Source of the DNA: a virus
Taxonomy: Duplodnaviria; Heunggongvirae; Uroviricota; Caudoviricetes
Length of the DNA stretch: 31,126 bases
IMG/VR virus record: IMGVR_UViG_2874968258_000011
Strand: one strand, 5' to 3'
The notes under the pieces are model-generated. The model searched no databases. It saw only the letters and a program-made list of their open reading frames with translations, and was not told the origin of the DNA. The translations under genes and the position numbers were made by a program. Positions within the stretch are counted from its first letter, which is position 1, and each line of letters starts with the position of its first letter. Below are positions 201 through 31,126 of this stretch, piece by piece.

Positions 201-764
201 TTATTCCACGATAAAATTCCTAACCGAATTCAAATCCTTCAGACTATTCAGCTCTTCCTTCAGCTCCCGCTGACGGCGATAAATCTCGTCATTGCGCTCA
301 ACCTGTGCCTGAGCCATTGCTGCCGCCAGTTCTTCCAGTTCCGGCATCGACAGTTTCACCTGCTGATTATCGGCATCACCCCACGTCATCACGTCCCGTA
401 CAATGTCGGATTTCGCAGCCATTACCACCGGATAAAGGCGGCCCAGTGAGTTGGGGCCAGCATTCCAGATACGACCGTTCCATTCAAACGTGAACGGCTT
501 CGCCTCCTGTTCTGTGCGCCATGCTTCAATTCCCTGACGTCTGGCCTCTCTGGCCGCTTCCAGCATTTCTGGTGTCACAGTGAATGGGGCTATCTCACCC
601 CATTTGCCACTTTGCAGTTCCTGCCAGATTCGCTGACCCGTCGGTGCGACATCATCAGCGGTGGCTGTGTAGGGGACTGCCTGGTCCCTGTCGTCAAAAA
701 AAACGTCACAGTCTACTGCGCCACTTTCGGTATAACGGGGATTAATGATTTTTTTAATTTCCAC
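201..764 (-). CDS. Putative tail fiber assembly/chaperone-like protein (Tfa-like); start assigned to GTG at 764 with GAGGA RBS
   Basis: ORF 201..824; position directly downstream of tail-associated gene; weak resemblance to Tfa N-terminal region (WNG motif); canonical Tfa C-terminal motif not seen. Confidence 0.35.
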   Translation of the reverse strand: MEIKKIINPRYTESGAVDCDVFFDDRDQAVPYTATADDVAPTGQRIWQELQSGKWGEIAPFTVTPEMLEAAREARRQGIEAWRTEQEAKPFTFEWNGRIWNAGPNSLGRLYPVVMAAKSDIVRDVMTWGDADNQQVKLSMPELEELAAAMAQAQVERNDEIYRRQRELKEELNSLKDLNSVRNFIVE

Positions 765-1127
765 GGTGCATTCCTCACGATGTGCGAATAAAAAGCCCGG
801 GCATTGCGCCAGAGACATGAGCATCCGGCACCCCGGACAGGGCGCTATATGACCCCGGTAATGAATGCTCTGAACATCCCGTAATGAAAAATTGTGGGGA
901 TGCTATATACGTTCCGGTGGGAGTACTGGGCACTGAAATCCCCACCGGTCCCAGTCGTGAGCCTCTGTATGACTGCCCCCTGACAAGTCTGATGACTTTA
1001 TCACCGTCAGCTTCTCCCTGGTACGCAGCAATAATCAGCCCGCCAATGTCAGGGTCTCCCCATCTGTTGCAGACAGAGCTCGCCACGATTCTGTAAATAA
1101 TATCTTCTGTGGGGTAATGACTCCAAC

Positions 1128-1631
1128 TTATTGATAGTGTTTTATGTTCAGATAATGCCCGATGACTTTGTCATGCAGCTCCACCGATTTTGAGAACGAC
1201 AGCGACTTCCGTCCCAGCCGTGCCAGGTGCTGCCTCAGATTCAGGTTATGCCGCTCAATTCGCTGCGTATATCGCTTGCTGATTACGTGCAGCTTTCCCT
1301 TCAGGCGGGATTCATACAGCGGCCAGCCATCCGTCATCCATATCACCACGTCAAAGGGTGACAGCAGGCTCATAAGACGCCCCAGCGTCGCCATAGTGCG
1401 TTCACCGAATACGTGCGCAACAACCGTCTTCCGGAGACTGTCATACGCGTAAAACAGCCAGCGCTGGCGCGATTTAGCCCCGACATAGCCCCACTGTTCG
1501 TCCATTTCCGCGCAGACGATGACGTCACTGCCCGGCTGTATGCGCGAGGTTACCGACTGCGGCCTGAGTTTTTTAAGTGACGTAAAATCGTGTTGAGGCC
1601 AACGCCCATAATGCGTGCAGTTGCCCGGCAT
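1128..1631 (-). CDS. insB: IS1 InsB (expressed as InsAB' by -1 frameshift at A6C)
   Basis: 167-aa ORF overlapping insA; TTAAAAAACTC slippery motif. Confidence 0.9.
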
Positions 1632-1825
1632 CCAACGCCATTCATGGCCATATCAATGATTTTCTGGTGCGTACCGGGTTGAGAAGCGGTGTAAGTGAAC
1701 TGCAGTTGCCATGTTTTACGGCAGTGAGAGCAGAGATAGCGCTGATGTCCGGCAGTGCTTTTGCCGTTACGCACCACCCCGTCAGTAGCTGAACAGGAGG
1801 GACAGCTGATAGAAACAGAAGCCAC
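1550..1825 (-). CDS. insA: IS1 InsA
   Basis: 91-aa [25 protein letters not shown]…. Confidence 0.9.
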
Positions 1826-2265
1826 TGGAGCACCTCAAAAACACCATCATACACTAAATCAGTAAGTTGGCAGCATCACCCTTCTGTGGTTATATTTATT
1901 TTCACCCAGCCAGTCAGTCTGGATATGGGCCAGTAGCAGTAGCGGGTGTGATAAATGGGGCCGTTAATGCCGTAAAAAGTAAGGGATTTGGCTCTGTACC
2001 TCGGTTCTGTTGTCTCAGGGCGTGCATCAGTCCACCGGATGCTGAGCCCCCCTTCAAACCGTGTGTCGGGTATGATGATGTCGTAGGGGCCAGCAACGGA
2101 ATATTCACCTGGCAGCGCATTCCTTACCCAGGCCAGGAAATCACTCTTAGTGTCAAAACGGATAACATCTTCAGGCAGAAAAGCACACCCAAAGCCGAAT
2201 GCGCCGGGTATCGCCAGACGGCTGAGGTGTACTGGCAATAGCGGACACTACCATTTGTTCTTTTT

Positions 2266-3084
2266 TTAAGCAGCCATCTGATGATATTTTTCCCTGAAGG
2301 CTGCCGGGGAGATATTCCCCAGACGAGAGTGACGACGCTGACGATTGTAGAAAATCTCAATGTATTCCCGTATTACTGAGATGGCTTCATCCCGGTTATT
2401 AAAACGATAGTGGCTCAGGCTCTCATTTTTCAGCGTTCCCCAGAAGCTTTCCATCGGAGCGTTGTCGTAACAGTTACCTTTACGCGACATTGATGTTTTC
2501 AGACCAGACTGCTCCTGTATGACCCGGTAATCGTATGCGCAGTACTGTGAACCTCGATCAGAGTGGTGGATTAGCCCGGCAGGTGGGCGCTGGCTCCTGA
2601 GCGCCATAAACAGGGCTTTACCTGTCAGCTCTTTTGTCATGCGCTCTCCCATGGCGTAGCCGACAATTTCGCACGTATAAACATCTTTGATGCCAGCGAG
2701 GTACAACCATCCCTCCTGTGTGGCAACATACGTCAGGTCCGCCACCCAGACCTGATTTGGTGCTGTAGGAGCGAACGTCTGGTTCAGCAGATTTGGCGCA
2801 ACTGGCAGATTGTGGTTCGAGTTCGTAGTCGCTCTGAACTTGCGTTTCTGCTTACAGCGTAGCCTTAGCTCCTTACGAAGACGTGCCAGTCGGTCACGAC
2901 CAACGATGATGCCATTCTCTGCCAGCTCCGTCTGGAGCCGCCGGGTTCCATATGTTTCGCGAGTGCGGATATGTGCCACCTTAATCTCCAGTTTTAGCCG
3001 CTCATCACTTTGTTTTCTGTCTGAGGGTTCATGCTGTACCCAGTTGTAATAACCGCTCCTGGATACACCAAATACCTGACACAT
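2266..3084 (-). CDS. IS600 OrfB (DDE transposase catalytic part; OrfAB by -1 frameshift)
   Basis: 272-aa ORF; A-run slippery site at end of orfA. Confidence 0.9.
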   Translation of the reverse strand: MCQVFGVSRSGYYNWVQHEPSDRKQSDERLKLEIKVAHIRTRETYGTRRLQTELAENGIIVGRDRLARLRKELRLRCKQKRKFRATTNSNHNLPVAPNLLNQTFAPTAPNQVWVADLTYVATQEGWLYLAGIKDVYTCEIVGYAMGERMTKELTGKALFMALRSQRPPAGLIHHSDRGSQYCAYDYRVIQEQSGLKTSMSRKGNCYDNAPMESFWGTLKNESLSHYRFNNRDEAISVIREYIEIFYNRQRRHSRLGNISPAAFREKYHQMAA

Positions 3085-3119
3085 CGCTTCAATGGGAAAT
3101 TGTTGTCGCCATTGTTCGA

Positions 3120-3422
3120 TTAACGCGTATTTTTCAGCGACTCCTGTGCAAAATACGCTGTTGCTTTTTTTAATATATCTCGCTCAAGGCGAGCTTCATT
3201 TAACGCCTTACGCAGTTGCAGAATTTCAGATTCCAGTTCAGCCACCGTGCGGGAACCAGGAGTACCGAGCCCTTTTCTGGCGGCGGTAACCCATTGTCCT
3301 AAAGTGCCTTCAGGAAGAGATAATCGGGAAGCGCCTTCACTGATCGAAAGTTGATTTTCAAGAACCGTTCTGACAGCTTCGGCTTTGAACTCTTTAGAGT
3401 AACGTTGGGTTTTTCTGCTCAT
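3120..3422 (-). CDS. IS600 OrfA (HTH transposase subunit)
   Basis: 100-aa ORF MSRKTQRYSKEFKAEAV…; variant with L at residue 21. Confidence 0.9.
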   Translation of the reverse strand: MSRKTQRYSKEFKAEAVRTVLENQLSISEGASRLSLPEGTLGQWVTAARKGLGTPGSRTVAELESEILQLRKALNEARLERDILKKATAYFAQESLKNTR

Positions 3423-3486
3423 TATTAGCTCCTTCTGATGCCATTCTATTTCAGGAAGGAGTGTCCGTTAAACTCAGGCTACCTCA

Positions 3487-3844
3487 TTCTGGCGAGTCGT
3501 TTTTTGGAGTGTTCGCGGGCTTTTTCCTCCGTCATCTGAATAATCAGCATATCAGCAGGATCGCAAATCACGTTGTAAATCACCCAGCCGTCAATCAGGC
3601 CGATAGTCTTGCCGGTTCGTGCCGGGCCAACAAATATCACTGCGTCGTATTCACGCGAGGCCAGGCAGTTCATCGGCTCAATAACATACGGTGCCACCAG
3701 CGGATCCCACGGGACTGAGTTCCCTGCCCCCATGGGCACCCGCATATACTGAGCAACGGCATCAGCAACCCGCATTCGTCTCGGTGCGCGAAGGATATAA
3801 CCTGAATCGGTTCGTGCTGCCTTTGCGGTTTCCTGATTCAGCAT
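3487..3844 (-). pseudogene. Terminase large subunit (gpA-like), N-terminal ~119 codons only; truncated at IS600
   Basis: ORF starts at stop of Nu1-like gene; pattern resembles lambda gpA N-terminus (W-D/E-x-L … Y-x-x-V … AR-x-G-x-T/SK); reading frame runs into IS600 end. Confidence 0.55.
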
Positions 3845-4338
3845 TACTCCTCCTGCTGTAATTCCTCCTCATCATCCGCACCTGCTTCAGTCACCCGCAG
3901 GGCTATCTGATCGCGCAGATCATCAATAATGGACTGAACACGGCTCACAGCGGCAGGCTGCAGACCGCAGTCACGTTCAAGAATATCCGGTAATGTCTCC
4001 AGCACCTGCACGACCGCTTTTGCCCAGATGGCAAACTCCCGTCTGACATCACTGGCCGGAATGAGTTGTGCCGTTTCCTGTTCGAACTTAAGACGCTCAC
4101 GTTCAGACTGATACCAGGCTTTGCGCTCATGCGCGTCCATTTCGCCTTCTGCAACCGGCGGTGGTAATGCCAGAAATGCCGACACAATATCAACCACCCG
4201 ATAAAGCTTGAGGTTGCTTTCATGCCCCCCTGCAACGGGTAGATTTTGCAGCCTTGCCGCAGCAGTCTGGCGATGTACACCTGACAGTGCCGCCAGTTGA
4301 CTGATATTCAGCGTCAGATTTTTTAACTCTCGATCCAT
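3844..4338 (-). CDS. Terminase small subunit (Nu1-like)
   Basis: 164-aa ORF with N-terminal HTH-like segment (LNISQLAALSGVHRQTAA), acidic C-terminus, immediately upstream of gpA-like ORF. Confidence 0.6.
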   Translation of the reverse strand: MDRELKNLTLNISQLAALSGVHRQTAAARLQNLPVAGGHESNLKLYRVVDIVSAFLALPPPVAEGEMDAHERKAWYQSERERLKFEQETAQLIPASDVRREFAIWAKAVVQVLETLPDILERDCGLQPAAVSRVQSIIDDLRDQIALRVTEAGADDEEELQQEE

Positions 4339-4481
4339 ACCCGCTCCAGAATGTTTTAAACATGCATCTTGCGAACAACTTTAGGCAAACGGTGTTAGTG
4401 ATGAACAAAAAACAATCAAAATTGTCAACGCCACGATGTTTGACCGTTATTTGCCATTTTCATGCCCGCTAAATACTTTCG

Positions 4482-4775
<294 letters not shown>

Positions 4776-4793
4776 CTACCATTTGTTCTTTTT

Positions 4794-5612
4794 TTAAGCA
4801 GCCATCTGATGATATTTTTCCCTGAAGGCTGCCGGGGAGATATTCCCCAGACGAGAGTGACGACGCTGACGATTGTAGAAAATCTCAATGTATTCCCGTA
4901 TTACTGAGATGGCTTCATCCCGGTTATTAAAACGATAGTGGCTCAGGCTCTCATTTTTCAGCGTTCCCCAGAAGCTTTCCATCGGAGCGTTGTCGTAACA
5001 GTTACCTTTACGCGACATTGATGTTTTCAGACCAGACTGCTCCTGTATGACCCGGTAATCGTATGCGCAGTACTGTGAACCTCGATCAGAGTGGTGGATT
5101 AGCCCGGCAGGTGGGCGCTGGCTCCTGAGCGCCATAAACAGGGCTTTACCTGTCAGCTCTTTTGTCATGCGCTCTCCCATGGCGTAGCCGACAATTTCGC
5201 ACGTATAAACATCTTTGATGCCAGCGAGGTACAACCATCCCTCCTGTGTGGCAACATACGTCAGGTCCGCCACCCAGACCTGATTTGGTGCTGTAGGAGC
5301 GAACGTCTGGTTCAGCAGATTTGGCGCAACTGGCAGATTGTGGTTCGAGTTCGTAGTCGCTCTGAACTTGCGTTTCTGCTTACAGCGTAGCCTTAGCTCC
5401 TTACGAAGACGTGCCAGTCGGTCACGACCAACGATGATGCCATTCTCTGCCAGCTCCGTCTGGAGCCGCCGGGTTCCATATGTTTCGCGAGTGCGGATAT
5501 GTGCCACCTTAATCTCCAGTTTTAGCCGCTCATCACTTTGTTTTCTGTCTGAGGGTTCATGCTGTACCCAGTTGTAATAACCGCTCCTGGATACACCAAA
5601 TACCTGACACAT
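4794..5612 (-). CDS. IS600 OrfB
   Basis: 272-aa ORF identical to copy 1. Confidence 0.9.
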   Translation of the reverse strand: MCQVFGVSRSGYYNWVQHEPSDRKQSDERLKLEIKVAHIRTRETYGTRRLQTELAENGIIVGRDRLARLRKELRLRCKQKRKFRATTNSNHNLPVAPNLLNQTFAPTAPNQVWVADLTYVATQEGWLYLAGIKDVYTCEIVGYAMGERMTKELTGKALFMALRSQRPPAGLIHHSDRGSQYCAYDYRVIQEQSGLKTSMSRKGNCYDNAPMESFWGTLKNESLSHYRFNNRDEAISVIREYIEIFYNRQRRHSRLGNISPAAFREKYHQMAA

Positions 5613-5647
5613 CGCTTCAATGGGAAATTGTTGTCGCCATTGTTCGA

Positions 5648-5950
5648 TTAACGCGTATTTTTCAGCGACTCCTGTGCAAAATACGCTGTTGCTTTTTTTA
5701 ATATATCTCGCTCAAGGCGAGCTTCATTTAACGCCTTACGCAGTTGCAGAATTTCAGATTCCAGTTCAGCCACCGTGCGGGAACCAGGAGTACCGAGCCC
5801 TTTTCTGGCGGCGGTAACCCATTGTCCTAAAGTGCCTTCAGGAAGAGATAATCGGGAAGCGCCTTCACTGATCGAAAGTTGATTTTCAAGAACCGTTCTG
5901 ACAGCTTCGGCTTTGAACTCTTTAGAGTAACGTTGGGTTTTTCTGCTCAT
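5648..5950 (-). CDS. IS600 OrfA
   Basis: Identical to copy 1 OrfA (L variant). Confidence 0.9.
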   Translation of the reverse strand: MSRKTQRYSKEFKAEAVRTVLENQLSISEGASRLSLPEGTLGQWVTAARKGLGTPGSRTVAELESEILQLRKALNEARLERDILKKATAYFAQESLKNTR

Positions 5951-6014
5951 TATTAGCTCCTTCTGATGCCATTCTATTTCAGGAAGGAGTGTCCGTTAAA
6001 CTCAGGCTACCTCA

Positions 6015-6549
6015 TGGCTTCCTCTCTGTTCATCGGCAGATAGCCTATTTCATCCAGGATCAACACCCGGGCATAACTCAGTTGCTGTAGCTGACGCTCC
6101 AGCCGGTTTTCCTGTTTCGCTTTCATCAGTGTCGCGATCAGTCTGTCCAGTGGCATAAACAGTACCCGATGTCCCGCATCCACCGCTTTCACGCCAAGAG
6201 CTATGGCCAGATGAGTTTTTCCGACACCAGGAGGGCCCAGCAGGATCACGTTTTCGCTGCGCTCCACGAACGCCAGACCAGCCAGTTCCCGGACAACCTT
6301 ACGGTCGATGCCCGGCTGGAAGGTAAAGTCGAACTGCTCCAGCGTTTTGACCCACGGCAGACGAGCCTGCTTCAGCCTGGACTCCATACCGCGCTGATGC
6401 CTGCCGTTCCATTCCTGCTGTAGCGCCATGCACAGGAACTCCCGGTAGTTCAGCTCTTTTTTAGCTGCCTGTTCCAGCAGGCTTTCAACGTGATAACTCA
6501 GATGCTCCATTTTCAGGCGACTCAGCAGGACTTCCAGTTCATGCATCAC
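6015..6549 (-). pseudogene. istB: istB N-terminal fragment (Walker A GPPGVGKT present)
   Basis: 180-aa ORF 6007..6549 whose last codons run into IS600. Confidence 0.8.
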
Positions 6550-7718
6550 AACAGCTCCTCATAGGCACTCAGTGGTCGATGTTCCACCTGACTGACCTGC
6601 TGCCAGAGCGGGGCGTGATGCTCCGGCACTGTCTGCCAGCCAGACGATGCTGAACAGAGGCGATGTGAGGCCACCAGTTTCTCATTACTGTAGATCCGCA
6701 ACTCGTCATCCAGCGATATTCGTATCGATACCGGCTGACCACACAGCGCTTCGGGAACGCTGTAACGATTACCACCAACCTCGATATAGCTGTCCCAGGA
6801 CACATGGCGGATATCGAAGTAACTGGTATCGAAGTCTGTATCCGGTAACGGCTGCAGATGTTCCTGCTCCAGCGCGAAGCGCTGTTCCGGCGTTTCTTTG
6901 AACTGGCGAAGCTCCCGTTTGTCAGCCACATCGGCTATCCATTGCTCCAGTTGTTGATTGACATGAGTGAAGCTGTCGAACCTGCGGTACCGGACGAAGA
7001 AGTTCTCCTTGAGGTATTTCACCATCCGCTCAACCTTACCTTTTGTTCTGGCCCTGCGTGGACGGCATGCCCGTGGCAGGAAGTTATAGTGGTCAGCCAG
7101 CAACAGGAATCCGGAGTTGAACACGACTTTCCCGTTGTTATTCTTCAGCACCGCAGCCTTCTGGTTATCAACCAGCACCGTTTTCACACAACCACCGAAG
7201 TAGCGGAAGGCGCGAACCAGTGATTCGTAGGTATGCTCAGCATCCTGTTTTGGTGCGGCGAAGACATGGAAGCTGCGGGAGAACCCCAGCGTATTAACCG
7301 CAAAGTTAACTTTGCACCGTTGCCCGGCAACCTCCACCTCAACTTCGCCCCAGTCATGCTGGAGCTGGTATCCAGGCTGAGTTTCGAAGCGAACTGTTCT
7401 TTTTGACGGACGCATTTTACGTTTGGGCTGGATGTAGTAACGCAGCATGGAACGTCCGCCCGTATAACCCATTGCCTTAATCTCCGCGAAGATAACCTCG
7501 CTATTCCAGACATTCTCTGCCAGGCGCATGTCGATGTAATCCATAAACGGTTTCAGCTTAACCATTTTGTGGCGGGTCTTTCTGGCTGGCGGTTCAGGGT
7601 ATTTGAGGTAGCGTCTGACCGTCCGTTCAGAGCAACCAATCTGAGTCGCAATATCGACGATGTACGCGCCCTGCTGGCGCATTTGCTTTATCATGTAAAA
7701 GTCCTCTCTGCTCAGCAT
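6546..7718 (-). CDS. istA: IS21-family transposase IstA
   Basis: 390-aa ORF with N-terminal HTH, overlapping istB start. Confidence 0.85.
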   Translation of the reverse strand: MLSREDFYMIKQMRQQGAYIVDIATQIGCSERTVRRYLKYPEPPARKTRHKMVKLKPFMDYIDMRLAENVWNSEVIFAEIKAMGYTGGRSMLRYYIQPKRKMRPSKRTVRFETQPGYQLQHDWGEVEVEVAGQRCKVNFAVNTLGFSRSFHVFAAPKQDAEHTYESLVRAFRYFGGCVKTVLVDNQKAAVLKNNNGKVVFNSGFLLLADHYNFLPRACRPRRARTKGKVERMVKYLKENFFVRYRRFDSFTHVNQQLEQWIADVADKRELRQFKETPEQRFALEQEHLQPLPDTDFDTSYFDIRHVSWDSYIEVGGNRYSVPEALCGQPVSIRISLDDELRIYSNEKLVASHRLCSASSGWQTVPEHHAPLWQQVSQVEHRPLSAYEELL

Positions 7719-8096
7719 GTTGATGTCCTTTCTGGTGTGAGAACCTTAAGGAAACAACATGTTGGGTGGAGCGGACAATCCAAATGGCGAATTACCGTCT
7801 TATATCACTGGCGCTGACAAAATCGACACCATAAAAATAAAACCACTGTAATATCAATCCATTACAGTAGTGGTGATGACGAATGAAATTTCAAAAACTA
7901 GCCTTTTTCCGCGCCGCTCCCGCCCCGTGGCAGGCCACCCCACCGGGAGGACCCGTCAGCCTGACAGCCATGACGAACGTCTGATACAGCGCCCTGCATG
8001 AATGACATCGGGATAATCCAGAAAGGAATAGCATCGTACCCACAAGAATCAGTGTAAGTGTCCTGTTTCTTCCACCCCCGCACAGGACTGGCGAGC

Positions 8097-8554: not shown

Positions 8555-9022
8555 TCATCGAAGGCATTGCGTCCTGATGTATTCCTGAAGCGTTCTCAGT
8601 GCTGTTTGGTCGCGGATAATTCCGTCCCGGATACCGAGAACGTTTCGTCCAGCAACTGGAGAGAGTTCGACGGTGGCATCATTGCCCATGCCGGAGGCGC
8701 TGGAGGTTTCGGCTGAGGATGGCACAGGGCATTTTCCTTTGACGAGCACCCGACCACCATTATCAAGCTTGCGCCGAAGAGCATCATTTTCAGCTTTCGC
8801 ATCAGCTAACTCCTTCGTGTATTTAGCATCGAGTGCATCAGCATCACGCTGGCGCTGCTGCATGTCAGTAATGGTTGCGTTCGCCAGCTTCAGTTCTCTT
8901 GCGTTTTTGTCGCGCTGCTCTTTGTAGGTAATGGCGTTATCACGGTAATGATTAACAGCCCATGACAGGCGGACGATGATGCAGATAACCAGAGCGGAGA
9001 TAATCGCGGTGACTCTGCTCAT
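8555..9022 (-). CDS. Rz: Spanin inner-membrane subunit Rz
   Basis: [17 protein letters not shown]…[11 protein letters not shown]… resembles lambda/P21 Rz; start overlaps R stop (ATGA). Confidence 0.9.
8596..8802 (-). CDS. Rz1: Spanin outer-membrane lipoprotein Rz1, embedded in +1 frame of Rz
   Basis: ORF with lipobox VVGC and proline-rich stretch [11 protein letters not shown], wholly inside Rz. Confidence 0.8.
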
Positions 9023-9516
9023 TGCTGCCCCCACAAACAGACTTCACGCTCAATCTCACGACGGGTCATCAGCCCTTTCCATTGCTTACCGCCAGCATAT
9101 GTCCAGCGACGTAGCTGGTCACATGCGCCTTTGATATAGCCCTGGTTTATTTTGCGAAGAAGCGTCGATGTTCTGAAATTGCCAGCGCCCACGTTGTAAA
9201 CGAACGAGTAAAGAGCGCCGCGCGTTGTTTCCGGTATATCGACTTTGATGTACGGGTTAATTTGTCTGGCGACAGTGGCAAGGTCTTTATTCAGGAGAGC
9301 TTTGCATTCTGCTTCGGTATACGTTTTACCAGGCATGATGTCTTTTCCGGTGTGTCCGTGACATACAGTCCATACACCAATGATATCTTTGTATGGTATG
9401 TAGCTGACACCTTCCAGACCATCGTTACCACCTGGGCCAGTGATTAACACAGATGCTATAGCAACAGCCCCGCCACCAATAGCAACTGCAACAGCCTTGC
9501 GTAATGATGGCGACAT
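9019..9516 (-). CDS. R: SAR endolysin (phage lysozyme R, P21 type)
   Basis: 165-aa ORF; N-terminal Gly/Ala-rich signal-anchor-release segment; lysozyme-like body. Confidence 0.9.
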
Positions 9517-9731: not shown

Positions 9732-9908
9732 AGCCTCACCTCCGCAAATAACGGATGGCGTAGTTTTACACTGAGAAATGAAAGGGATTTGAAAAGAAAA
9801 AAACGCAAAAGCGGGCGAAACGATATATACAGTAAGGAAAGCACTGAGGTAGCCTGAGTTTAACGGACACTCCTTCCTAAAATAGAATGGCATCAGAAGG
9901 AGCTAATA

Positions 9909-10211
9909 ATGAGCAGAAAAACCCAACGTTACTCTAAAGAGTTCAAAGCCGAAGCTGTCAGAACGGTTCCTGAAAATCAACTTTCGATCAGTGAAGGCGC
10001 TTCCCGATTATCTCTTCCTGAAGGCACTTTAGGACAATGGGTTACCGCCGCCAGAAAAGGGCTCGGTACTCCTGGTTCCCGCACGGTGGCTGAACTGGAA
10101 TCTGAAATTCTGCAACTGCGTAAGGCGTTAAATGAAGCTCGCCTTGAGCGAGATATATTAAAAAAAGCAACAGCGTATTTTGCACAGGAGTCGCTGAAAA
10201 ATACGCGTTAA
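9909..10211 (+). CDS. IS600 OrfA (P variant at residue 21)
   Basis: 100-aa ORF. Confidence 0.9.
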   Translation: MSRKTQRYSKEFKAEAVRTVPENQLSISEGASRLSLPEGTLGQWVTAARKGLGTPGSRTVAELESEILQLRKALNEARLERDILKKATAYFAQESLKNTR

Positions 10212-10302
10212 TCGAACAATGGCGACAACAATTTCCCATTGAAGCGATGTGTCAGGTATTTGGTGTATCCAGGAGCGGTTATTACAACTGGGTATGAAGT
10301 GG

Positions 10303-11471
<1,169 letters not shown>

Positions 11472-12542
11472 TGGAGCACCTGTGTTGTTCTGAGGTGAGC
11501 ATATCACCTCTGTTCAGGTGGCCAAATTCAGTGTGCCACTTCAGTACAGCATGAACCCTCAGACAGAAAACAAAGTGATGAGCGGCTAAAACTGGAGATT
11601 AAGGTGGCACATATCCGCACTCGCGAAACATATGGAACCCGGCGGCTCCAGACGGAGCTGGCAGAGAATGGCATCATCGTTGGTCGTGACCGACTGGCAC
11701 GTCTTCGTAAGGAGCTAAGGCTACGCTGTAAGCAGAAACGCAAGTTCAGAGCGACTACGAACTCGAACCACAATCTGCCAGTTGCGCCAAATCTGCTGAA
11801 CCAGACGTTCGCTCCTACAGCACCAAATCAGGTCTGGGTGGCGGACCTGACGTATGTTGCCACACAGGAGGGATGGTTGTACCTCGCTGGCATCAAAGAT
11901 GTTTATACGTGCGAAATTGTCGGCTACGCCATGGGAGAGCGCATGACAAAAGAGCTGACAGGTAAAGCCCTGTTTATGGCGCTCAGGAGCCAGCGCCCAC
12001 CTGCCGGGCTAATCCACCACTCTGATCGAGGTTCACAGTACTGCGCATACGATTACCGGGTCATACAGGAGCAGTCTGGTCTGAAAACATCAATGTCGCG
12101 TAAAGGTAACTGTTACGACAACGCTCCGATGGAAAGCTTCTGGGGAACGCTGAAAAATGAGAGCCTGAGCCACTATCGTTTTAATAACCGGGATGAAGCC
12201 ATCTCAGTAATACGGGAATACATTGAGATTTTCTACAATCGTCAGCGTCGTCACTCTCGTCTGGGGAATATCTCCCCGGCAGCCTTCAGGGAAAAATATC
12301 ATCAGATGGCTGCTTAAAAAAAGAACAAATGGTAGTGTCCGCTATTGCCAGTACACCTCACACTCTATCCAACAAACCACCCACAGTTAATCGGAATAAA
12401 AGCAGAGTGCTTATGAATGATCGCACGCCCGAAGGTTAGTATTTCTGCACAGCAATTTTGCAAAAAAAGGCGATCATTCATAACTTAAACGTCTTTCAGT
12501 CACTCCGGGATTTCCCATCATCGCAGACTGAAAGACTCTGAC

Positions 12543-12617
<75 letters not shown>

Positions 12618-12620
12618 ATA

Positions 12621-12696
<76 letters not shown>

Positions 12697-12698
12697 GC

Positions 12699-12775
12699 TG
12701 GCCCACCACCGAGGACTCGAACCTCGCACCGTCAACTTAGAAGGTTGATGCTCTATCCGGATGAGCTAGTGGTGG
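12699..12775 (-). tRNA. tRNA-Arg (anticodon UCU); unusual C1:G72
   Basis: Acceptor CCACCAC/GTGGTGG, anticodon loop CTTCTAA, T-arm CGAGGTTCGAGTCCTCG, CCA. Confidence 0.75.
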
Positions 12776-12776
12776 T

Positions 12777-12853
12777 TGGTGGCCCTTGCTGGACTTGAAC
12801 CAGCGACCTGGCGATTATGAGTCGCTCGCTCTGACCAACTGAGCTAAAGGGCC
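12777..12853 (-). tRNA. tRNA with CAU anticodon, ileX-like (Ile2/lysidine type; elongator Met not excluded)
   Basis: GGCCCTTTAGCTCAG…GACTCATAATCGCC…GGTTCAAGTCCAGCAAGGGCCACCA. Confidence 0.75.
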
Positions 12854-14767: not shown

Positions 14768-14873
14768 GATGCCTCCAGGTTTATAAGTACAAACGGTTAT
14801 ATCAACATAGAGACAAAAGGTGATGCTGCCAACTTACTGATTTAGTGTATGATGGTGTTTTTGAGGTGCTCCA

Positions 14874-15149
14874 GTGGCTTCTGTTTCTATCAGCTGTCCC
14901 TCCTGTTCAGCTACTGACGGGGTGGTGCGTAACGGCAAAAGCACTGCCGGACATCAGCGCTATCTCTGCTCTCACTGCCGTAAAACATGGCAACTGCAGT
15001 TCACTTACACCGCTTCCCAACCCGGTACGCACCAGAAAATCATTGATATGGCCATGAATGGCGTTGGATGCCGGGCAACTGCACGCATTATGGGCGTTGG
15101 CCTCAACACGATTTTACGTCACTTAAAAAACTCAGGCCGCAGTCGGTAA
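14874..15149 (+). CDS. insA: IS1 InsA
   Basis: 91-aa ORF. Confidence 0.9.
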
Positions 15150-15571
15150 CCTCGCGCATACAGCCGGGCAGTGACGTCATCGTCTGCGCGGAAATGGACG
15201 AACAGTGGGGCTATGTCGGGGCTAAATCGCGCCAGCGCTGGCTGTTTTACGCGTATGACAGTCTCCGGAAGACGGTTGTTGCGCACGTATTCGGTGAACG
15301 CACTATGGCGACGCTGGGGCGTCTTATGAGCCTGCTGTCACCCTTTGACGTGGTGATATGGATGACGGATGGCTGGCCGCTGTATGAATCCCGCCTGAAG
15401 GGAAAGCTGCACGTAATCAGCAAGCGATATACGCAGCGAATTGAGCGGCATAACCTGAATCTGAGGCAGCACCTGGCACGGCTGGGACGGAAGTCGCTGT
15501 CGTTCTCAAAATCGGTGGAGCTGCATGACAAAGTCATCGGGCATTATCTGAACATAAAACACTATCAATAA
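15068..15571 (+). CDS. insB: IS1 InsB
   Basis: 167-aa ORF. Confidence 0.9.
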
Positions 15572-15678
15572 GTTGGAGTCATTACCAAAAAAACCGCCGA
15601 AACGGGTTAAGTGCGGGTGCGTTGAGGATGCCTGACACATCAAAGGTGGCGGGAGATTACTCTCCCGCCTGGTCACTC

Positions 15679-18334: not shown

Positions 18335-18389
18335 GGTGATGCTGCCAACTTACTGATTTAGTGTATGATGGTGTTTTTGAGGTGCTCCA

Positions 18390-18665
18390 GTGGCTTCTGT
18401 TTCTATCAGCTGTCCCTCCTGTTCAGCTACTGACGGGGTGGTGCGTAACGGCAAAAGCACTGCCGGACATCAGCGCTATCTCTGCTCTCACTGCCGTAAA
18501 ACATGGCAACTGCAGTTCACTTACACCGCTTCTCAACCCGGTACGCACCAGAAAATCATTGATATGGCCATGAATGGCGTTGGATGCCGGGCAACTGCAC
18601 GCATTATGGGCGTTGGCCTCAACACGATTTTACGTCACTTAAAAAACTCAGGCCGCAGTCGGTAA
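18390..18665 (+). CDS. insA: IS1 InsA
   Basis: 91-aa ORF. Confidence 0.9.
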
Positions 18666-19087
18666 CCTCGCGCATACAGCCGGGCAGTGACGTCATCGTC
18701 TGCGCGGAAATGGACGAACAGTGGGGCTATGTCGGGGCTAAATCGCGCCAGCGCTGGCTGTTTTACGCGTATGACAGTCTCCGGAAGACGGTTGTTGCGC
18801 ACGTATTCGGTGAACGCACTATGGCGACGCTGGGGCGTCTTATGAGCCTGCTGTCACCCTTTGACGTGGTGATATGGATGACGGATGGCTGGCCGCTGTA
18901 TGAATCCCGCCTGAAGGGAAAGCTGCACGTAATCAGCAAGCGATATACGCAGCGAATTGAGCGGCATAACCTGAATCTGAGGCAGCACCTGGCACGGCTG
19001 GGACGGAAGTCGCTGTCGTTCTCAAAATCGGTGGAGCTGCATGACAAAGTCATCGGGCATTATCTGAACATAAAACACTATCAATAA
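18584..19087 (+). CDS. insB: IS1 InsB
   Basis: 167-aa ORF. Confidence 0.9.
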
Positions 19088-19164
19088 GTTGGAGTCATTA
19101 TGAGGTAGCCTGAGTTTAACGGACACTCCTTCCTGAAATAGAATGGCATCAGAAGGAGCTAATA

Positions 19165-19467
19165 ATGAGCAGAAAAACCCAACGTTACTCTAAAGAGTTC
19201 AAAGCCGAAGCTGTCAGAACGGTTCCTGAAAATCAACTTTCGATCAGTGAAGGCGCTTCCCGATTATCTCTTCCTGAAGGCACTTTAGGACAATGGGTTA
19301 CCGCCGCCAGAAAAGGGCTCGGTACTCCTGGTTCCCGCACGGTGGCTGAACTGGAATCTGAAATTCTGCAACTGCGTAAGGCGTTAAATGAAGCTCGCCT
19401 TGAGCGAGATATATTAAAAAAAGCAACAGCGTATTTTGCACAGGAGTCGCTGAAAAATACGCGTTAA
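19165..19467 (+). CDS. IS600 OrfA (P variant)
   Basis: 100-aa ORF. Confidence 0.9.
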   Translation: MSRKTQRYSKEFKAEAVRTVPENQLSISEGASRLSLPEGTLGQWVTAARKGLGTPGSRTVAELESEILQLRKALNEARLERDILKKATAYFAQESLKNTR

Positions 19468-19502
19468 TCGAACAATGGCGACAACAATTTCCCATTGAAG
19501 CG

Positions 19503-20321
19503 ATGTGTCAGGTATTTGGTGTATCCAGGAGCGGTTATTACAACTGGGTACAGCATGAACCCTCAGACAGAAAACAAAGTGATGAGCGGCTAAAACTGGA
19601 GATTAAGGTGGCACATATCCGCACTCGCGAAACATATGGAACCCGGCGGCTCCAGACGGAGCTGGCAGAGAATGGCATCATCGTTGGTCGTGACCGACTG
19701 GCACGTCTTCGTAAGGAGCTAAGGCTACGCTGTAAGCAGAAACGCAAGTTCAGAGCGACTACGAACTCGAACCACAATCTGCCAGTTGCGCCAAATCTGC
19801 TGAACCAGACGTTCGCTCCTACAGCACCAAATCAGGTCTGGGTGGCGGACCTGACGTATGTTGCCACACAGGAGGGATGGTTGTACCTCGCTGGCATCAA
19901 AGATGTTTATACGTGCGAAATTGTCGGCTACGCCATGGGAGAGCGCATGACAAAAGAGCTGACAGGTAAAGCCCTGTTTATGGCGCTCAGGAGCCAGCGC
20001 CCACCTGCCGGGCTAATCCACCACTCTGATCGAGGTTCACAGTACTGCGCATACGATTACCGGGTCATACAGGAGCAGTCTGGTCTGAAAACATCAATGT
20101 CGCGTAAAGGTAACTGTTACGACAACGCTCCGATGGAAAGCTTCTGGGGAACGCTGAAAAATGAGAGCCTGAGCCACTATCGTTTTAATAACCGGGATGA
20201 AGCCATCTCAGTAATACGGGAATACATTGAGATTTTCTACAATCGTCAGCGTCGTCACTCTCGTCTGGGGAATATCTCCCCGGCAGCCTTCAGGGAAAAA
20301 TATCATCAGATGGCTGCTTAA
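19503..20321 (+). CDS. IS600 OrfB
   Basis: 272-aa ORF. Confidence 0.9.
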   Translation: MCQVFGVSRSGYYNWVQHEPSDRKQSDERLKLEIKVAHIRTRETYGTRRLQTELAENGIIVGRDRLARLRKELRLRCKQKRKFRATTNSNHNLPVAPNLLNQTFAPTAPNQVWVADLTYVATQEGWLYLAGIKDVYTCEIVGYAMGERMTKELTGKALFMALRSQRPPAGLIHHSDRGSQYCAYDYRVIQEQSGLKTSMSRKGNCYDNAPMESFWGTLKNESLSHYRFNNRDEAISVIREYIEIFYNRQRRHSRLGNISPAAFREKYHQMAA

Positions 20322-20364
20322 AAAAAGAACAAATGGTAGTGTCCGCTATTGCCAGTACACCTCA

Positions 20365-29240: not shown

Positions 29241-29435
29241 AAAAAAGAAAGCCTGCACACTGTGCAGGCCTGAGTGAAGAACCTGGGACATTTATTCATC
29301 ACTCGCAGTAATTTTAATCTGAGTTGAGGTTAAAAAACAATGAGCACCGATAAACAAGTTTACCCACTGTATGAGGTAGCCTGAGTTTAACGGACACTCC
29401 TTCCTGAAATAGAATGGCATCAGAAGGAGCTAATA

Positions 29436-29738
29436 ATGAGCAGAAAAACCCAACGTTACTCTAAAGAGTTCAAAGCCGAAGCTGTCAGAACGGTTCCTGA
29501 AAATCAACTTTCGATCAGTGAAGGCGCTTCCCGATTATCTCTTCCTGAAGGCACTTTAGGACAATGGGTTACCGCCGCCAGAAAAGGGCTCGGTACTCCT
29601 GGTTCCCGCACGGTGGCTGAACTGGAATCTGAAATTCTGCAACTGCGTAAGGCGTTAAATGAAGCTCGCCTTGAGCGAGATATATTAAAAAAAGCAACAG
29701 CGTATTTTGCACAGGAGTCGCTGAAAAATACGCGTTAA
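29436..29738 (+). CDS. IS600 OrfA (P variant)
   Basis: 100-aa ORF. Confidence 0.9.
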   Translation: MSRKTQRYSKEFKAEAVRTVPENQLSISEGASRLSLPEGTLGQWVTAARKGLGTPGSRTVAELESEILQLRKALNEARLERDILKKATAYFAQESLKNTR

Positions 29739-29773
29739 TCGAACAATGGCGACAACAATTTCCCATTGAAGCG

Positions 29774-30592
29774 ATGTGTCAGGTATTTGGTGTATCCAGG
29801 AGCGGTTATTACAACTGGGTACAGCATGAACCCTCAGACAGAAAACAAAGTGATGAGCGGCTAAAACTGGAGATTAAGGTGGCACATATCCGCACTCGCG
29901 AAACATATGGAACCCGGCGGCTCCAGACGGAGCTGGCAGAGAATGGCATCATCGTTGGTCGTGACCGACTGGCACGTCTTCGTAAGGAGCTAAGGCTACG
30001 CTGTAAGCAGAAACGCAAGTTCAGAGCGACTACGAACTCGAACCACAATCTGCCAGTTGCGCCAAATCTGCTGAACCAGACGTTCACTCCTACAGCACCA
30101 AATCAGGTCTGGGTGGCGGACCTGACGTATGTTGCCACACAGGAGGGATGGTTGTACCTCGCTGGCATCAAAGATGTTTATACGTGCGAAATTGTCGGCT
30201 ACGCCATGGGAGAGCGCATGACAAAAGAGCTGACAGGTAAAGCCCTGTTTATGGCGCTCAGGAGCCAGCGCCCACCTGCCGGGCTAATCCACCACTCTGA
30301 TCGAGGTTCACAGTACTGCGCATACGATTACCGGGTCATACAGGAGCAGTCTGGTCTGAAAACATCAATGTCGCGTAAAGGTAACTGTTACGACAACGCT
30401 CCGATGGAAAGCTTCTGGGGAACGCTGAAAAATGAGAGCCTGAGCCACTATCGTTTTAATAACCGGGATGAAGCCATCTCAGTAATACGGGAATACATTG
30501 AGATTTTCTACAATCGTCAGCGTCGTCACTCTCGTCTGGGGAATATCTCCCCGGCAGCCTTCAGGGAAAAATATCATCAGATGGCTGCTTAA
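29774..30592 (+). CDS. IS600 OrfB
   Basis: 272-aa ORF. Confidence 0.9.
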   Translation: MCQVFGVSRSGYYNWVQHEPSDRKQSDERLKLEIKVAHIRTRETYGTRRLQTELAENGIIVGRDRLARLRKELRLRCKQKRKFRATTNSNHNLPVAPNLLNQTFTPTAPNQVWVADLTYVATQEGWLYLAGIKDVYTCEIVGYAMGERMTKELTGKALFMALRSQRPPAGLIHHSDRGSQYCAYDYRVIQEQSGLKTSMSRKGNCYDNAPMESFWGTLKNESLSHYRFNNRDEAISVIREYIEIFYNRQRRHSRLGNISPAAFREKYHQMAA

Positions 30593-30635
30593 AAAAAGAA
30601 CAAATGGTAGTGTCCGCTATTGCCAGTACACCTCA

Positions 30636-31126
30636 TTGTGAATGTCAGAAGAAACCTGACGATACTTGATATGTTCGGTCCCCCAAAAACAAATGCCGGG
30701 ATCCGGACGGTAACATTACTGCAGCCGGCTCTTGAAGCACTGAAGGAGCAATACAAACTGACCGGGCATCATCGCAAAAGCGAAATCACTTTTTATCATC
30801 GGGAGTACGGCAGAACTGAAAAGCAAAAACTGCATTTTGTTTTCATGCCCAGGGTGTGTAACGAAAAACAGAAACCTTATTACTCGGTAAGCAGTTTGGG
30901 TGCAAGATGGAATGCAGCAGTAAAACGTGCTGGTATTCGCCGCCGTAATCCGTACCATACGCGACATACTTTTGCCTGCTGGCTGTTGACGGCAGGAGCG
31001 AACCCGGCATTTATAGCCAGCCAGATGGGGCATGAAACTGCGCAAATGGTGTATGAAATTTACGGTATGTGGATTGATGACATGAACGACGAACAGATAG
31101 CCATGTTGAATGCGCGGTTATCGTAG
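30636..31126 (+). pseudogene. Tyrosine integrase, C-terminal catalytic fragment (~164 codons)
   Basis: …YHTRHTFACWLL…GHETAQMVYEIYGMW contains the H-x-x-R and terminal Tyr region of tyrosine recombinases; begins at IS600 boundary, no start codon of its own. Confidence 0.7.

Follow-up and report, generated by a model that had tools for sequence, protein, structure and literature searches.

Loss of about 19 kb of head and tail genes at an IS600 joint in the sit-linked lambdoid prophage remnant of Shigella sonnei

Cryptic lambdoid prophages of Shigella and E. coli, such as Rac and Qin in K-12 and the defective Stx prophage of S. dysenteriae 1, have decayed with loss of morphogenetic genes and carry many insertion sequences. 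PAI sit of Shigella and EIEC likewise has sitABCD at the end of phage-derived DNA, and the island is reported to show considerable variation in size and orientation and to occupy several chromosomal sites (Fisher et al., 2009, as cited in PMC7545054). The parts of the sit-island literature considered here, in which Fisher et al. (2009) is represented through that citation, describe neither a terminase/tail-fibre joint nor nested IS600 deletions. Where an insertion sequence lacks its target duplication, the usual causes are IS-IS recombination or adjacent deletion; in the long-term evolution experiment, IS150, of the IS3 family, gave rise to 14 deletions of the latter kind (PMC11708052).

We analysed a 31,126-nt stretch of DNA (the window, meaning the whole of that stretch), which was 99.99-100% identical to the complete S. 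sonnei chromosomes CP044191.1 and CP032523.1. Its left neighbours are sitDCBA-uspF-ompN-ydbK, the first 200 nt of the window being DNA downstream of sitD, and at the right border a truncated integrase lies at the window end, about 50 nt from ttcA-dbpA-zntB. The element, a lambda-like (lambdoid) prophage remnant, lies in the Rac site (ttcA ... uspF-ompN), carries sitABCD as cargo at its end and is the equivalent of what has been termed PAI sit (PMC7545054). Like other decayed lambdoid prophages it occupies the Rac attachment site, keeps cargo (sitABCD), lysis and regulatory genes, and has duplication-less insertion sequences at its joints. Unlike them, it allows the exact breakpoints, the size of the loss (18,956 bp) and a less advanced joint in a sister lineage to be read, and the responsible element is IS600 rather than IS1 or IS5. 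The features on which the analysis rests are the following.

201..824, minus strand: DUF4376 gene, the last prophage gene before sitD (Pfam DUF4376, E=2.9e-15; phrog_1141, 'tail fiber protein')
775..1112, minus strand: 3' segment of the retained side tail fibre fragment (stf'), distal to IS1, in frame with 1890-2222 after IS1 removal
1113..1880, minus strand: IS1 in stf', with the 9-bp duplication CTTCTGTGG at 1104-1112 and 1881-1889
1881..2222, minus strand: 5' segment of stf' (phrog_2636), phage sequence resuming at nt 599 of the 1269 nt of stf
2223..3486, minus strand: IS600 copy 1, with IRL at 3486 by the terminase fragment and IRR at 2223 by stf'
3487..3844, minus strand: gpA', the 5' 358 nt of gpA (Pfam GpA_ATPase; breakpoint set against the intact gene)
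3844..4338, minus strand: complete small terminase subunit gene (Pfam DUF1441, E=2.7e-41; phrog_141, E=7e-74)
4423..7817, minus strand: IS21-family element (IstA/IstB; Pfam matches for IstA), with CAAAAT on both sides
8555..9516, minus strand: Rz and lysozyme genes (Pfam Phage_lysis and Phage_lysozyme)

IS600 copy 1 (1264 bp, minus strand) was delimited exactly, and a preliminary description of this DNA, which had placed it at 2223-3486 between the triplets GGC and TTC, proved correct to the base. That description also read the locus as the first 119 codons of gpA joined through IS600 to the 3' part of a tail gene, which was borne out once both breakpoints were mapped on intact genes. The break in gpA falls between ...CGACTCGCCAGAA and CGTTTCGCG, and the break in stf between ...GGACAAAAG and GCCGTCTGGCG, both exact against the intact gene.

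To size the loss we used two comparators that hold both flanks in one prophage, FDAARGOS_943 and FDAARGOS_944.

FDAARGOS_944, sit-linked prophage: 18,956 bp between the breakpoints
FDAARGOS_943, ipaH-bearing prophage: 19,012 bp between the breakpoints

The FDAARGOS_944 prophage is the better comparator. It was collinear with the window on both sides of the joint, from ydaT to sitD, with the shared order ydaT/ydaU, DnaC-like, DUF977, HNH, DUF551, hok, DUF1367, DUF1364, DUF1133, tRNA cluster, lysis genes, small terminase and gpA', followed after the gap by stf'-DUF4376-sitD. Most of its early genes were 99.7-100% identical to those of the window and its small terminase-gpA' DNA was 99.6% identical, with the early, lysis, tRNA and stf-DUF4376 genes and the sit junction in the same order. 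Alignment of the flanks to this intact relative thus set the deletion at 18,956 bp. The missing interval holds gpA nt 359-2103, a W-like gene (head-tail joining), portal, a ClpP/capsid fusion (protease/capsid), DUF2190 (decoration), homologues of Z, U, V, G, T, H, M, L, K, I and J, lom, and stf up to nt 598, so that tail tube, tape measure and tail tip are among the tail functions lost. The same 19-kb head/tail module is kept in full in mEp460, 569R4 and the FDAARGOS_944 prophage. The window lacks it, and the genes left there still run small terminase, gpA', stf', DUF4376 in the original order and direction, between the two expected chromosomal borders. Head and tail genes totalling about 19 kb have been lost in situ from the prophage. 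The proposal of the preliminary description, an IS-mediated deletion of portal, capsid and tail genes, is supported, since the orthologous prophage holds 18,956 bp where the window has IS600.

On the right of the joint, the ORF at 3479-3844 (minus strand) matched phrog_15 (terminase large subunit) and, in Pfam, GpA_ATPase (PF05876; E=4.5e-22, positions 2-80 of the 247-position profile). Its phage-derived part is limited to 358 nt (119 codons plus 1 nt), after which the frame enters IS600 by two codons. The translation of gpA' contains the Walker A motif GPARTGKT, as expected of an N-terminal GpA_ATPase segment; a full-length protein has a complete ATPase plus GpA_nuclease (about 640-700 aa), and with 119 codons left gpA' is a truncated remnant of a gene that measures 2103 nt (700 aa) in relatives. 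The fragment was 100% identical to gpA of an E. coli O91:H21 prophage, and the small terminase-gpA' DNA was 99.3-99.8% identical to phages mEp460, phi458 and 569R4, with prophages at least 99% identical in 784 E. coli records. A gpA-like assignment from the preliminary description therefore stands, on the GpA_ATPase match together with 99.3-100% DNA identity to mEp460, phi458, 569R4 and about 780 E. coli prophage terminases. The gene upstream of gpA', earlier called Nu1, is indeed a small terminase, but its family is a different one: DUF1441 (PF07278) was its sole Pfam match and phrog_141 its PHROG match, and the Pfam Phage_Nu1 profile (PF07471) did not match it. It is Nu1-like by position and role and not a member of the Nu1 family. 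Further right, the stretch that holds the Rz and lysozyme genes is collinear with both phage 569R4 and the FDAARGOS_944 prophage, so the right flank runs on as a normal lambdoid late region.

On the left, the tail-associated gene of which the preliminary description saw the distal part is the side tail fibre gene stf, represented by its last 222 codons and split by IS1. When IS1 and one copy of its duplication were removed, 775-1112 and 1890-2222 formed a single open 222-codon C-terminal frame ending at 775, and this joined fragment matched phrog_2636 (side tail fibre) at positions 340-567 of 568. IS1 is a simple insertion here and was not present in stf of S. sonnei CP061367.1. The segment at 775-1112 was 96.9% identical to stf of EIEC CFSAN029787, and that at 1881-2222 was 99.4-99.7% identical to stf of three further loci, L002, L019 (CP061367.1) and L022. 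Homologues 97-99.7% identical over the fragment carry PF08400 phage_tail_N, and the gene follows Lom in L016 and L027; the fragment is thus assigned to the lambda Stf type through its homologues, the N-terminal domain itself being deleted in the window. The stf products of the mEp460, 569R4 and FDAARGOS_944 relatives are at least 470 aa, versus 422 aa in S. sonnei, as in EIEC CFSAN029787. Searched against the phage collection, the tail fragment returned nothing by megablast and only tail fibres of 28-40% identity at the protein level, and neither search gave a deletion size. The last gene before sitD had been described as Tfa-like, a label that has to be given up: the gene at 201-824 did not match the Caudo_TAP (PF02413) profile of Tfa, DUF4376 was its sole Pfam match, and it occupies the usual tfa position, followed by sitDCBA-uspF-ompN in S. 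sonnei genomes.

One way to dispose of the joint would be to treat it as an artefact, with terminase and tail-fibre genes naturally adjacent, the ORFs misassigned, or the assembly collapsed over repeated insertion sequences. Some drafts that cross IS600 are in fact unreliable; the IS end of the L009 contig contains an N, and no right IS end was found in L008 or L010. We had considered draft contigs L008-L010 as other right-hand contexts and treated them as scaffolding joins for these reasons. The family assignments in both Pfam and PHROG are strong, however, and the two genes are not natural neighbours. About 16.45 kb of head and tail genes separates gpA from stf in mEp460, in the O91:H21 Qin-type prophage and in FDAARGOS_943, and this spacing held in every intact relative examined that carries the same terminase. 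S. sonnei 53G (HE616528.1) has the same gpA'-IS600-stf' joint, and it was identical in several independent complete S. sonnei chromosomes (HE616528.1, CP044191.1 and CP032523.1), so it is not an assembly artefact. We regard this explanation as hardly credible.

A second explanation, very improbable in our judgement, is that two prophages were fused, with a mEp460-like small terminase-gpA'-IS600 block brought into a myovirus-type sit prophage such as that of EIEC CFSAN029787. The closest match to stf' does lie in the CFSAN029787 sit prophage, which has a myovirus baseplate module and a different terminase, and one S. sonnei-like assembly combines a myovirus-type sit prophage with the same gpA'-IS600 joint in a mEp460-like background on another contig. 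We briefly entertained a fusion because of CFSAN029787, and dropped it once the FDAARGOS_943 and FDAARGOS_944 prophages were found. In FDAARGOS_944 the same locus holds a sit prophage that combines a lambda-like small terminase-gpA...J-Lom-stf-DUF4376 module with early genes 99.7-100% identical to those of the window. All parts of the window, for their part, follow the canonical arrangement and direction from one proper chromosomal border to the other. In addition, the spacer from Rz to the small terminase was closer to mEp460 and 569R4 than to the L015 prophage, and an stf with the lambda-Stf N-terminal domain (PF08400) fits a lambda-like tail. In our view the myovirus-type sit prophages arose by module replacement and the S. 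sonnei element by deletion in situ.

The inserted element is an IS600. Its termini read TGAGGTAGCC... and TGAGGTGTAC..., forming imperfect inverted repeats that start with TGAGGT around an element of about 1.26 kb, and it has overlapping reading frames, orfA (100 aa) matching HTH_Tnp_1 and orfB (272 aa) matching rve in Pfam. Elements that carry the annotation 'IS3-like element IS600 family transposase' in E. coli FDAARGOS_943 matched it at 99.4% identity. The 31-kb window contains six IS600 copies, of which five are uninterrupted and copy 3 is split by IS911; copy 1 was identical to copy 2 and differed by 1-2 nt from the remaining three uninterrupted copies. Copies 2, 3 and 5 have 3-bp duplications (TGG, CAC and GAT, respectively). 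Copies 1, 4 and 6 all lack a target duplication, and at copy 1 the flanks are GGC (2220-2222) and TTC (3487-3489). The missing duplication marks copy 1 as a rearrangement joint and is no argument against its identity as IS600. Set against the duplications at simple IS600 insertions nearby, it favours adjacent deletion or rearrangement. When the flanks of copies 1, 4 and 6 were compared for inversion partners, no pair matched.

A different joint is found in S. sonnei CP061367.1 (L019), whose chromosomal flank was identical to that of 53G over 9,978 nt. Its gpA'-IRL joint is identical to that of the window and the other end of the IS is joined differently. There, IRR abuts nt 172 to 1 of a second, inverted IS600, followed by stf from nt 65 to its end (1205 nt, of which 7 differ from the EIEC stf). 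The two states therefore share the gpA'-IRL joint and differ in where IRR leads: in the window and 53G it meets stf at nt 599, and in CP061367.1 it meets the inverted IS600 at nt 172 of that element. The window lacks 706 bp that CP061367.1 retains, made up of the 172-nt IS fragment and 534 nt of stf. CP061367.1 has stf sequence that the window lacks, and so cannot descend from the window state. CP061367.1 also lacks both the IS1 and the IS21-family insertions, and its state looks less derived than that of the window; the order from the one to the other is one that we infer by parsimony rather than from a phylogeny.

These observations point to an in-situ loss of about 19 kb by transposase-driven adjacent deletion, that is, intramolecular attack by an IS end, in at least two nested steps, which we consider somewhat more probable than all other accounts taken together. 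The features of an adjacent deletion are present, with the joint exactly at the IS terminus, no duplication, and the deleted DNA present in the orthologue. Two endpoints on one anchored IS end are the signature of transposase-driven adjacent deletion, and the loss probably took two or more nested steps. The sequence of events would have been as follows. A first element, IS600-A, would have inserted directly behind gpA nt 358, co-directional with the gene, and a second, IS600-B, would have inserted inverted at stf nt 65. A first deletion would then have removed about 18.3 kb from the IRR terminus of A into B, leaving the state kept in S. sonnei CP061367.1, and a second would have removed a further 706 bp from the same terminus to stf nt 599, giving the state of the window and 53G. 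IS1 and the IS21-family element would have inserted last. IS3-family elements move mainly by a copy-out-paste-in route via a circle, and adjacent deletion is a side reaction for them. As in known adjacent deletions, the IS is kept, the DNA by one end is lost, no duplication is present and the joint lies at the IS terminus; unlike those, the event here is natural and old, with a transposase dependence that we infer.

The same in-situ 19-kb loss could instead have come from RecA-dependent recombination between two direct IS600 copies, leaving a single hybrid copy. One copy would have lain in gpA (duplication GAA) and one at stf nt 596-598 (GCC), and the mismatched GAA/GCC flanks are exactly those that a hybrid copy would have. 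The abundance of IS600, present six times in the 31 kb, makes a second insertion plausible, and IS-IS recombination is a frequent cause of missing duplications (PMC11708052). Against this, in none of the genomes examined does a duplication-flanked IS600 occupy the site at stf nt 599, and the joint in CP061367.1 runs into the interior of an inverted IS600, so that a further nested insertion would be needed. The gpA and stf copies in CP061367.1 are inverted relative to one another and their recombination therefore cannot delete the intervening DNA, and two endpoints on one IS terminus are the classic signature of adjacent deletion. Probes for both joints detected neither of them in the collection of E. 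coli complete genomes, nor any intermediate there. We judge the recombination account a serious contender and rather unlikely. An extra direct IS600 insertion followed by homologous recombination with the gpA copy would leave the same sequence, so the transposase chemistry falls short of proof, and 'IS-mediated' as used here spans adjacent deletion and IS600-IS600 recombination, which sequence alone does not fully separate.

The IS21-family element separates the lysis genes from the small terminase gene, contains IS600 copy 2 (nested at 4751-6014) and was missing in S. sonnei 53G and in CP061367.1; it is a later, lineage-specific insertion and not part of the deletion. The integrase is cut short by IS600 copy 6, which has no duplication, and a replication-region gene is split by copy 5. 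Insertion sequences account for at least 42.6% of the window.

Apart from IS elements, the remainder of the window codes for early, regulatory, replication, antitermination, tRNA and lysis functions only. No portal, capsid, tail-tube or other head/tail genes were left within the 31-kb window, which runs from sitD to about 50 nt from ttcA. Having lost every head and tail gene and the greater part of the large terminase gene, the prophage is predicted to be incapable of building capsids or tails. It would accordingly be non-inducible to particles, as the preliminary description proposed, and the truncated integrase and several other IS lesions reinforce this expectation. All that survives is a vehicle for sitABCD and for regulatory, lysis and tRNA genes. 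With the morphogenetic genes gone and the integrase truncated, the iron/manganese transporter cargo becomes a stable chromosomal trait, which explains the fixation of the sit prophage. This is ordinary IS-driven prophage decay, a known kind of event in public annotated genomes, and it leaves the understanding of phage or IS biology unchanged. It is a well-resolved example that could serve for teaching or for benchmarking tools that detect IS deletions, and the CP061367.1-type versus 53G-type joint, together with the presence or absence of IS1 and of the IS21-family element, could provide lineage markers.

A simple deletion history does not account for the arrangement in the S. sonnei-like assembly GCA_001260535.1. 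Its chromosomal flank had 1 mismatch in 9,978 nt against 53G, and it carries a myovirus-type sit prophage with an intact stf whose 5' part is about 6.7% divergent from the stf of CP061367.1, which points to replacement of the remnant by an incoming phage, one of the crossovers falling within stf. The gpA'-IS600 joint was also found at a contig end of this assembly, in a mEp460-like prophage background (L015). This joint in a second background may reflect an insertion hot spot, inter-prophage recombination or shared ancestry. We propose tentatively, and short of calling it probable, the combined picture in which S. sonnei preserves successive stages of nested deletion by one IS600 end, amounting to a natural time series of prophage erosion by the transposase, and gpA nt 358 is either a hot spot or the site of a joint copied between prophages.

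Two sequence details around copy 1 were considered and set aside. The 8-nt inverted repeat TCGCCAGA/TCTGGCGA that surrounds it has halves native to gpA and stf, respectively, and we take their likeness for a coincidence and not for a footprint of the event. A T/C polymorphism at IS600 nt 126 was unusable as evidence for a hybrid IS, 53G having C there together with the same joint. As a separate point, the reciprocal joint, with IS600 followed by gpA from nt 359, would read CCAGTACACCTCA-GAA-CGTTTCGCGTCAGCC and would mean an inversion or translocation.

IS elements have repeatedly rearranged the locus of the prophage linked to sitABCD (sit). Two other genomes, CP029794.1 (L020) and JANXIY010000004.1 (L021), showed an identical DUF4376-sit flank and carried the same prophage differently truncated, with the ends bounded by IS1 or IS600. 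The IS1 of L020 was adjoined by chromosomal genes, identified from their Pfam domains as ycjT-like glycosyl hydrolase, tpx-like, ycjG-like and mpaA-like genes. Insertion sequences accounted for at least 42.6% of the window, including the following elements.

4423-7817: IS21-family element, CAAAAT at both flanks
4751-6014: IS600 copy 2, inside istB of the IS21-family element, duplication TGG
9845-12360: IS600 copy 3, duplication CAC, split by an IS911-like element
10295-11543: IS911-like element within IS600 copy 3, duplication GTA
14819-15586: IS1, no 9-bp duplication
19101-20364: IS600 copy 4, no target duplication
29372-30635: IS600 copy 6, no target duplication

Besides copy 1, the element joining the 5' part of the large terminase gene (gpA) to the 3' part of the side tail-fibre gene (stf), IS600 copies 4 and 6 also seem to mark IS-associated deletions within this prophage. 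Copy 4 was adjoined by an IS1 (18335-19100) missing its last 2 bp, and copy 6 cut the integrase gene, of which the C-terminal catalytic part alone remained (30620-31126). The IS1 at 14819-15586 appears to mark a small IS1-adjacent deletion; beside it, approximately 130 bp of the orthologous prophage of E. coli FDAARGOS_944 were absent from the window.

The IS21-family element with its nested IS600 copy 2 was found in S. sonnei CP044191.1 and CP032523.1, but S. sonnei 53G and CP061367.1 both lacked it. IS600 copies 1 and 2 had in common a rare T at IS nt 126 and lay only 1.3 kb apart, which suggests that copy 2 arose by local hopping from copy 1. We also observed an 8-nt inverted repeat bracketing copy 1 (TCGCCAGA / TCTGGCGA, window 2213-2220 and 3489-3496); this repeat is probably coincidental, because in intact relatives its halves are native stf and native gpA sequence, respectively.

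The S. sonnei-like assembly GCA_001260535.1 (loci L022 and L015) carried a sit prophage of the myovirus type whose stf was intact but divergent in its 5' part, suggesting prophage replacement via recombination within stf. On a different contig, an mEp460-like prophage showed the same gpA-IS600 joint as the window; its presence in this second background suggests either that gpA contains a hot spot for IS600 or that the prophages exchanged DNA. In the EIEC sit prophage (L002; NZ_CP011416.1, record positions 4676080-4679726), the myovirus's own fibre and Tfa pair was followed by a lambda-Stf-type fibre gene and a DUF4376 gene; the latter two look like what is left of a lambda-like tail module that was there before, retained together with sitABCD.

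A tRNA cluster separated the Q-like antiterminator gene from the lysis genes, and IS600 copy 3 was positioned between this cluster and the holin gene.

12543-12853: four phage-borne tRNA genes (Gly-TCC, Thr-TGT, Arg-TCT and one with a CAT anticodon)

The cluster was kept in related EIEC and E. coli prophages, and the CAT-anticodon tRNA, called Met here, was annotated as Ile in the E. coli relatives.
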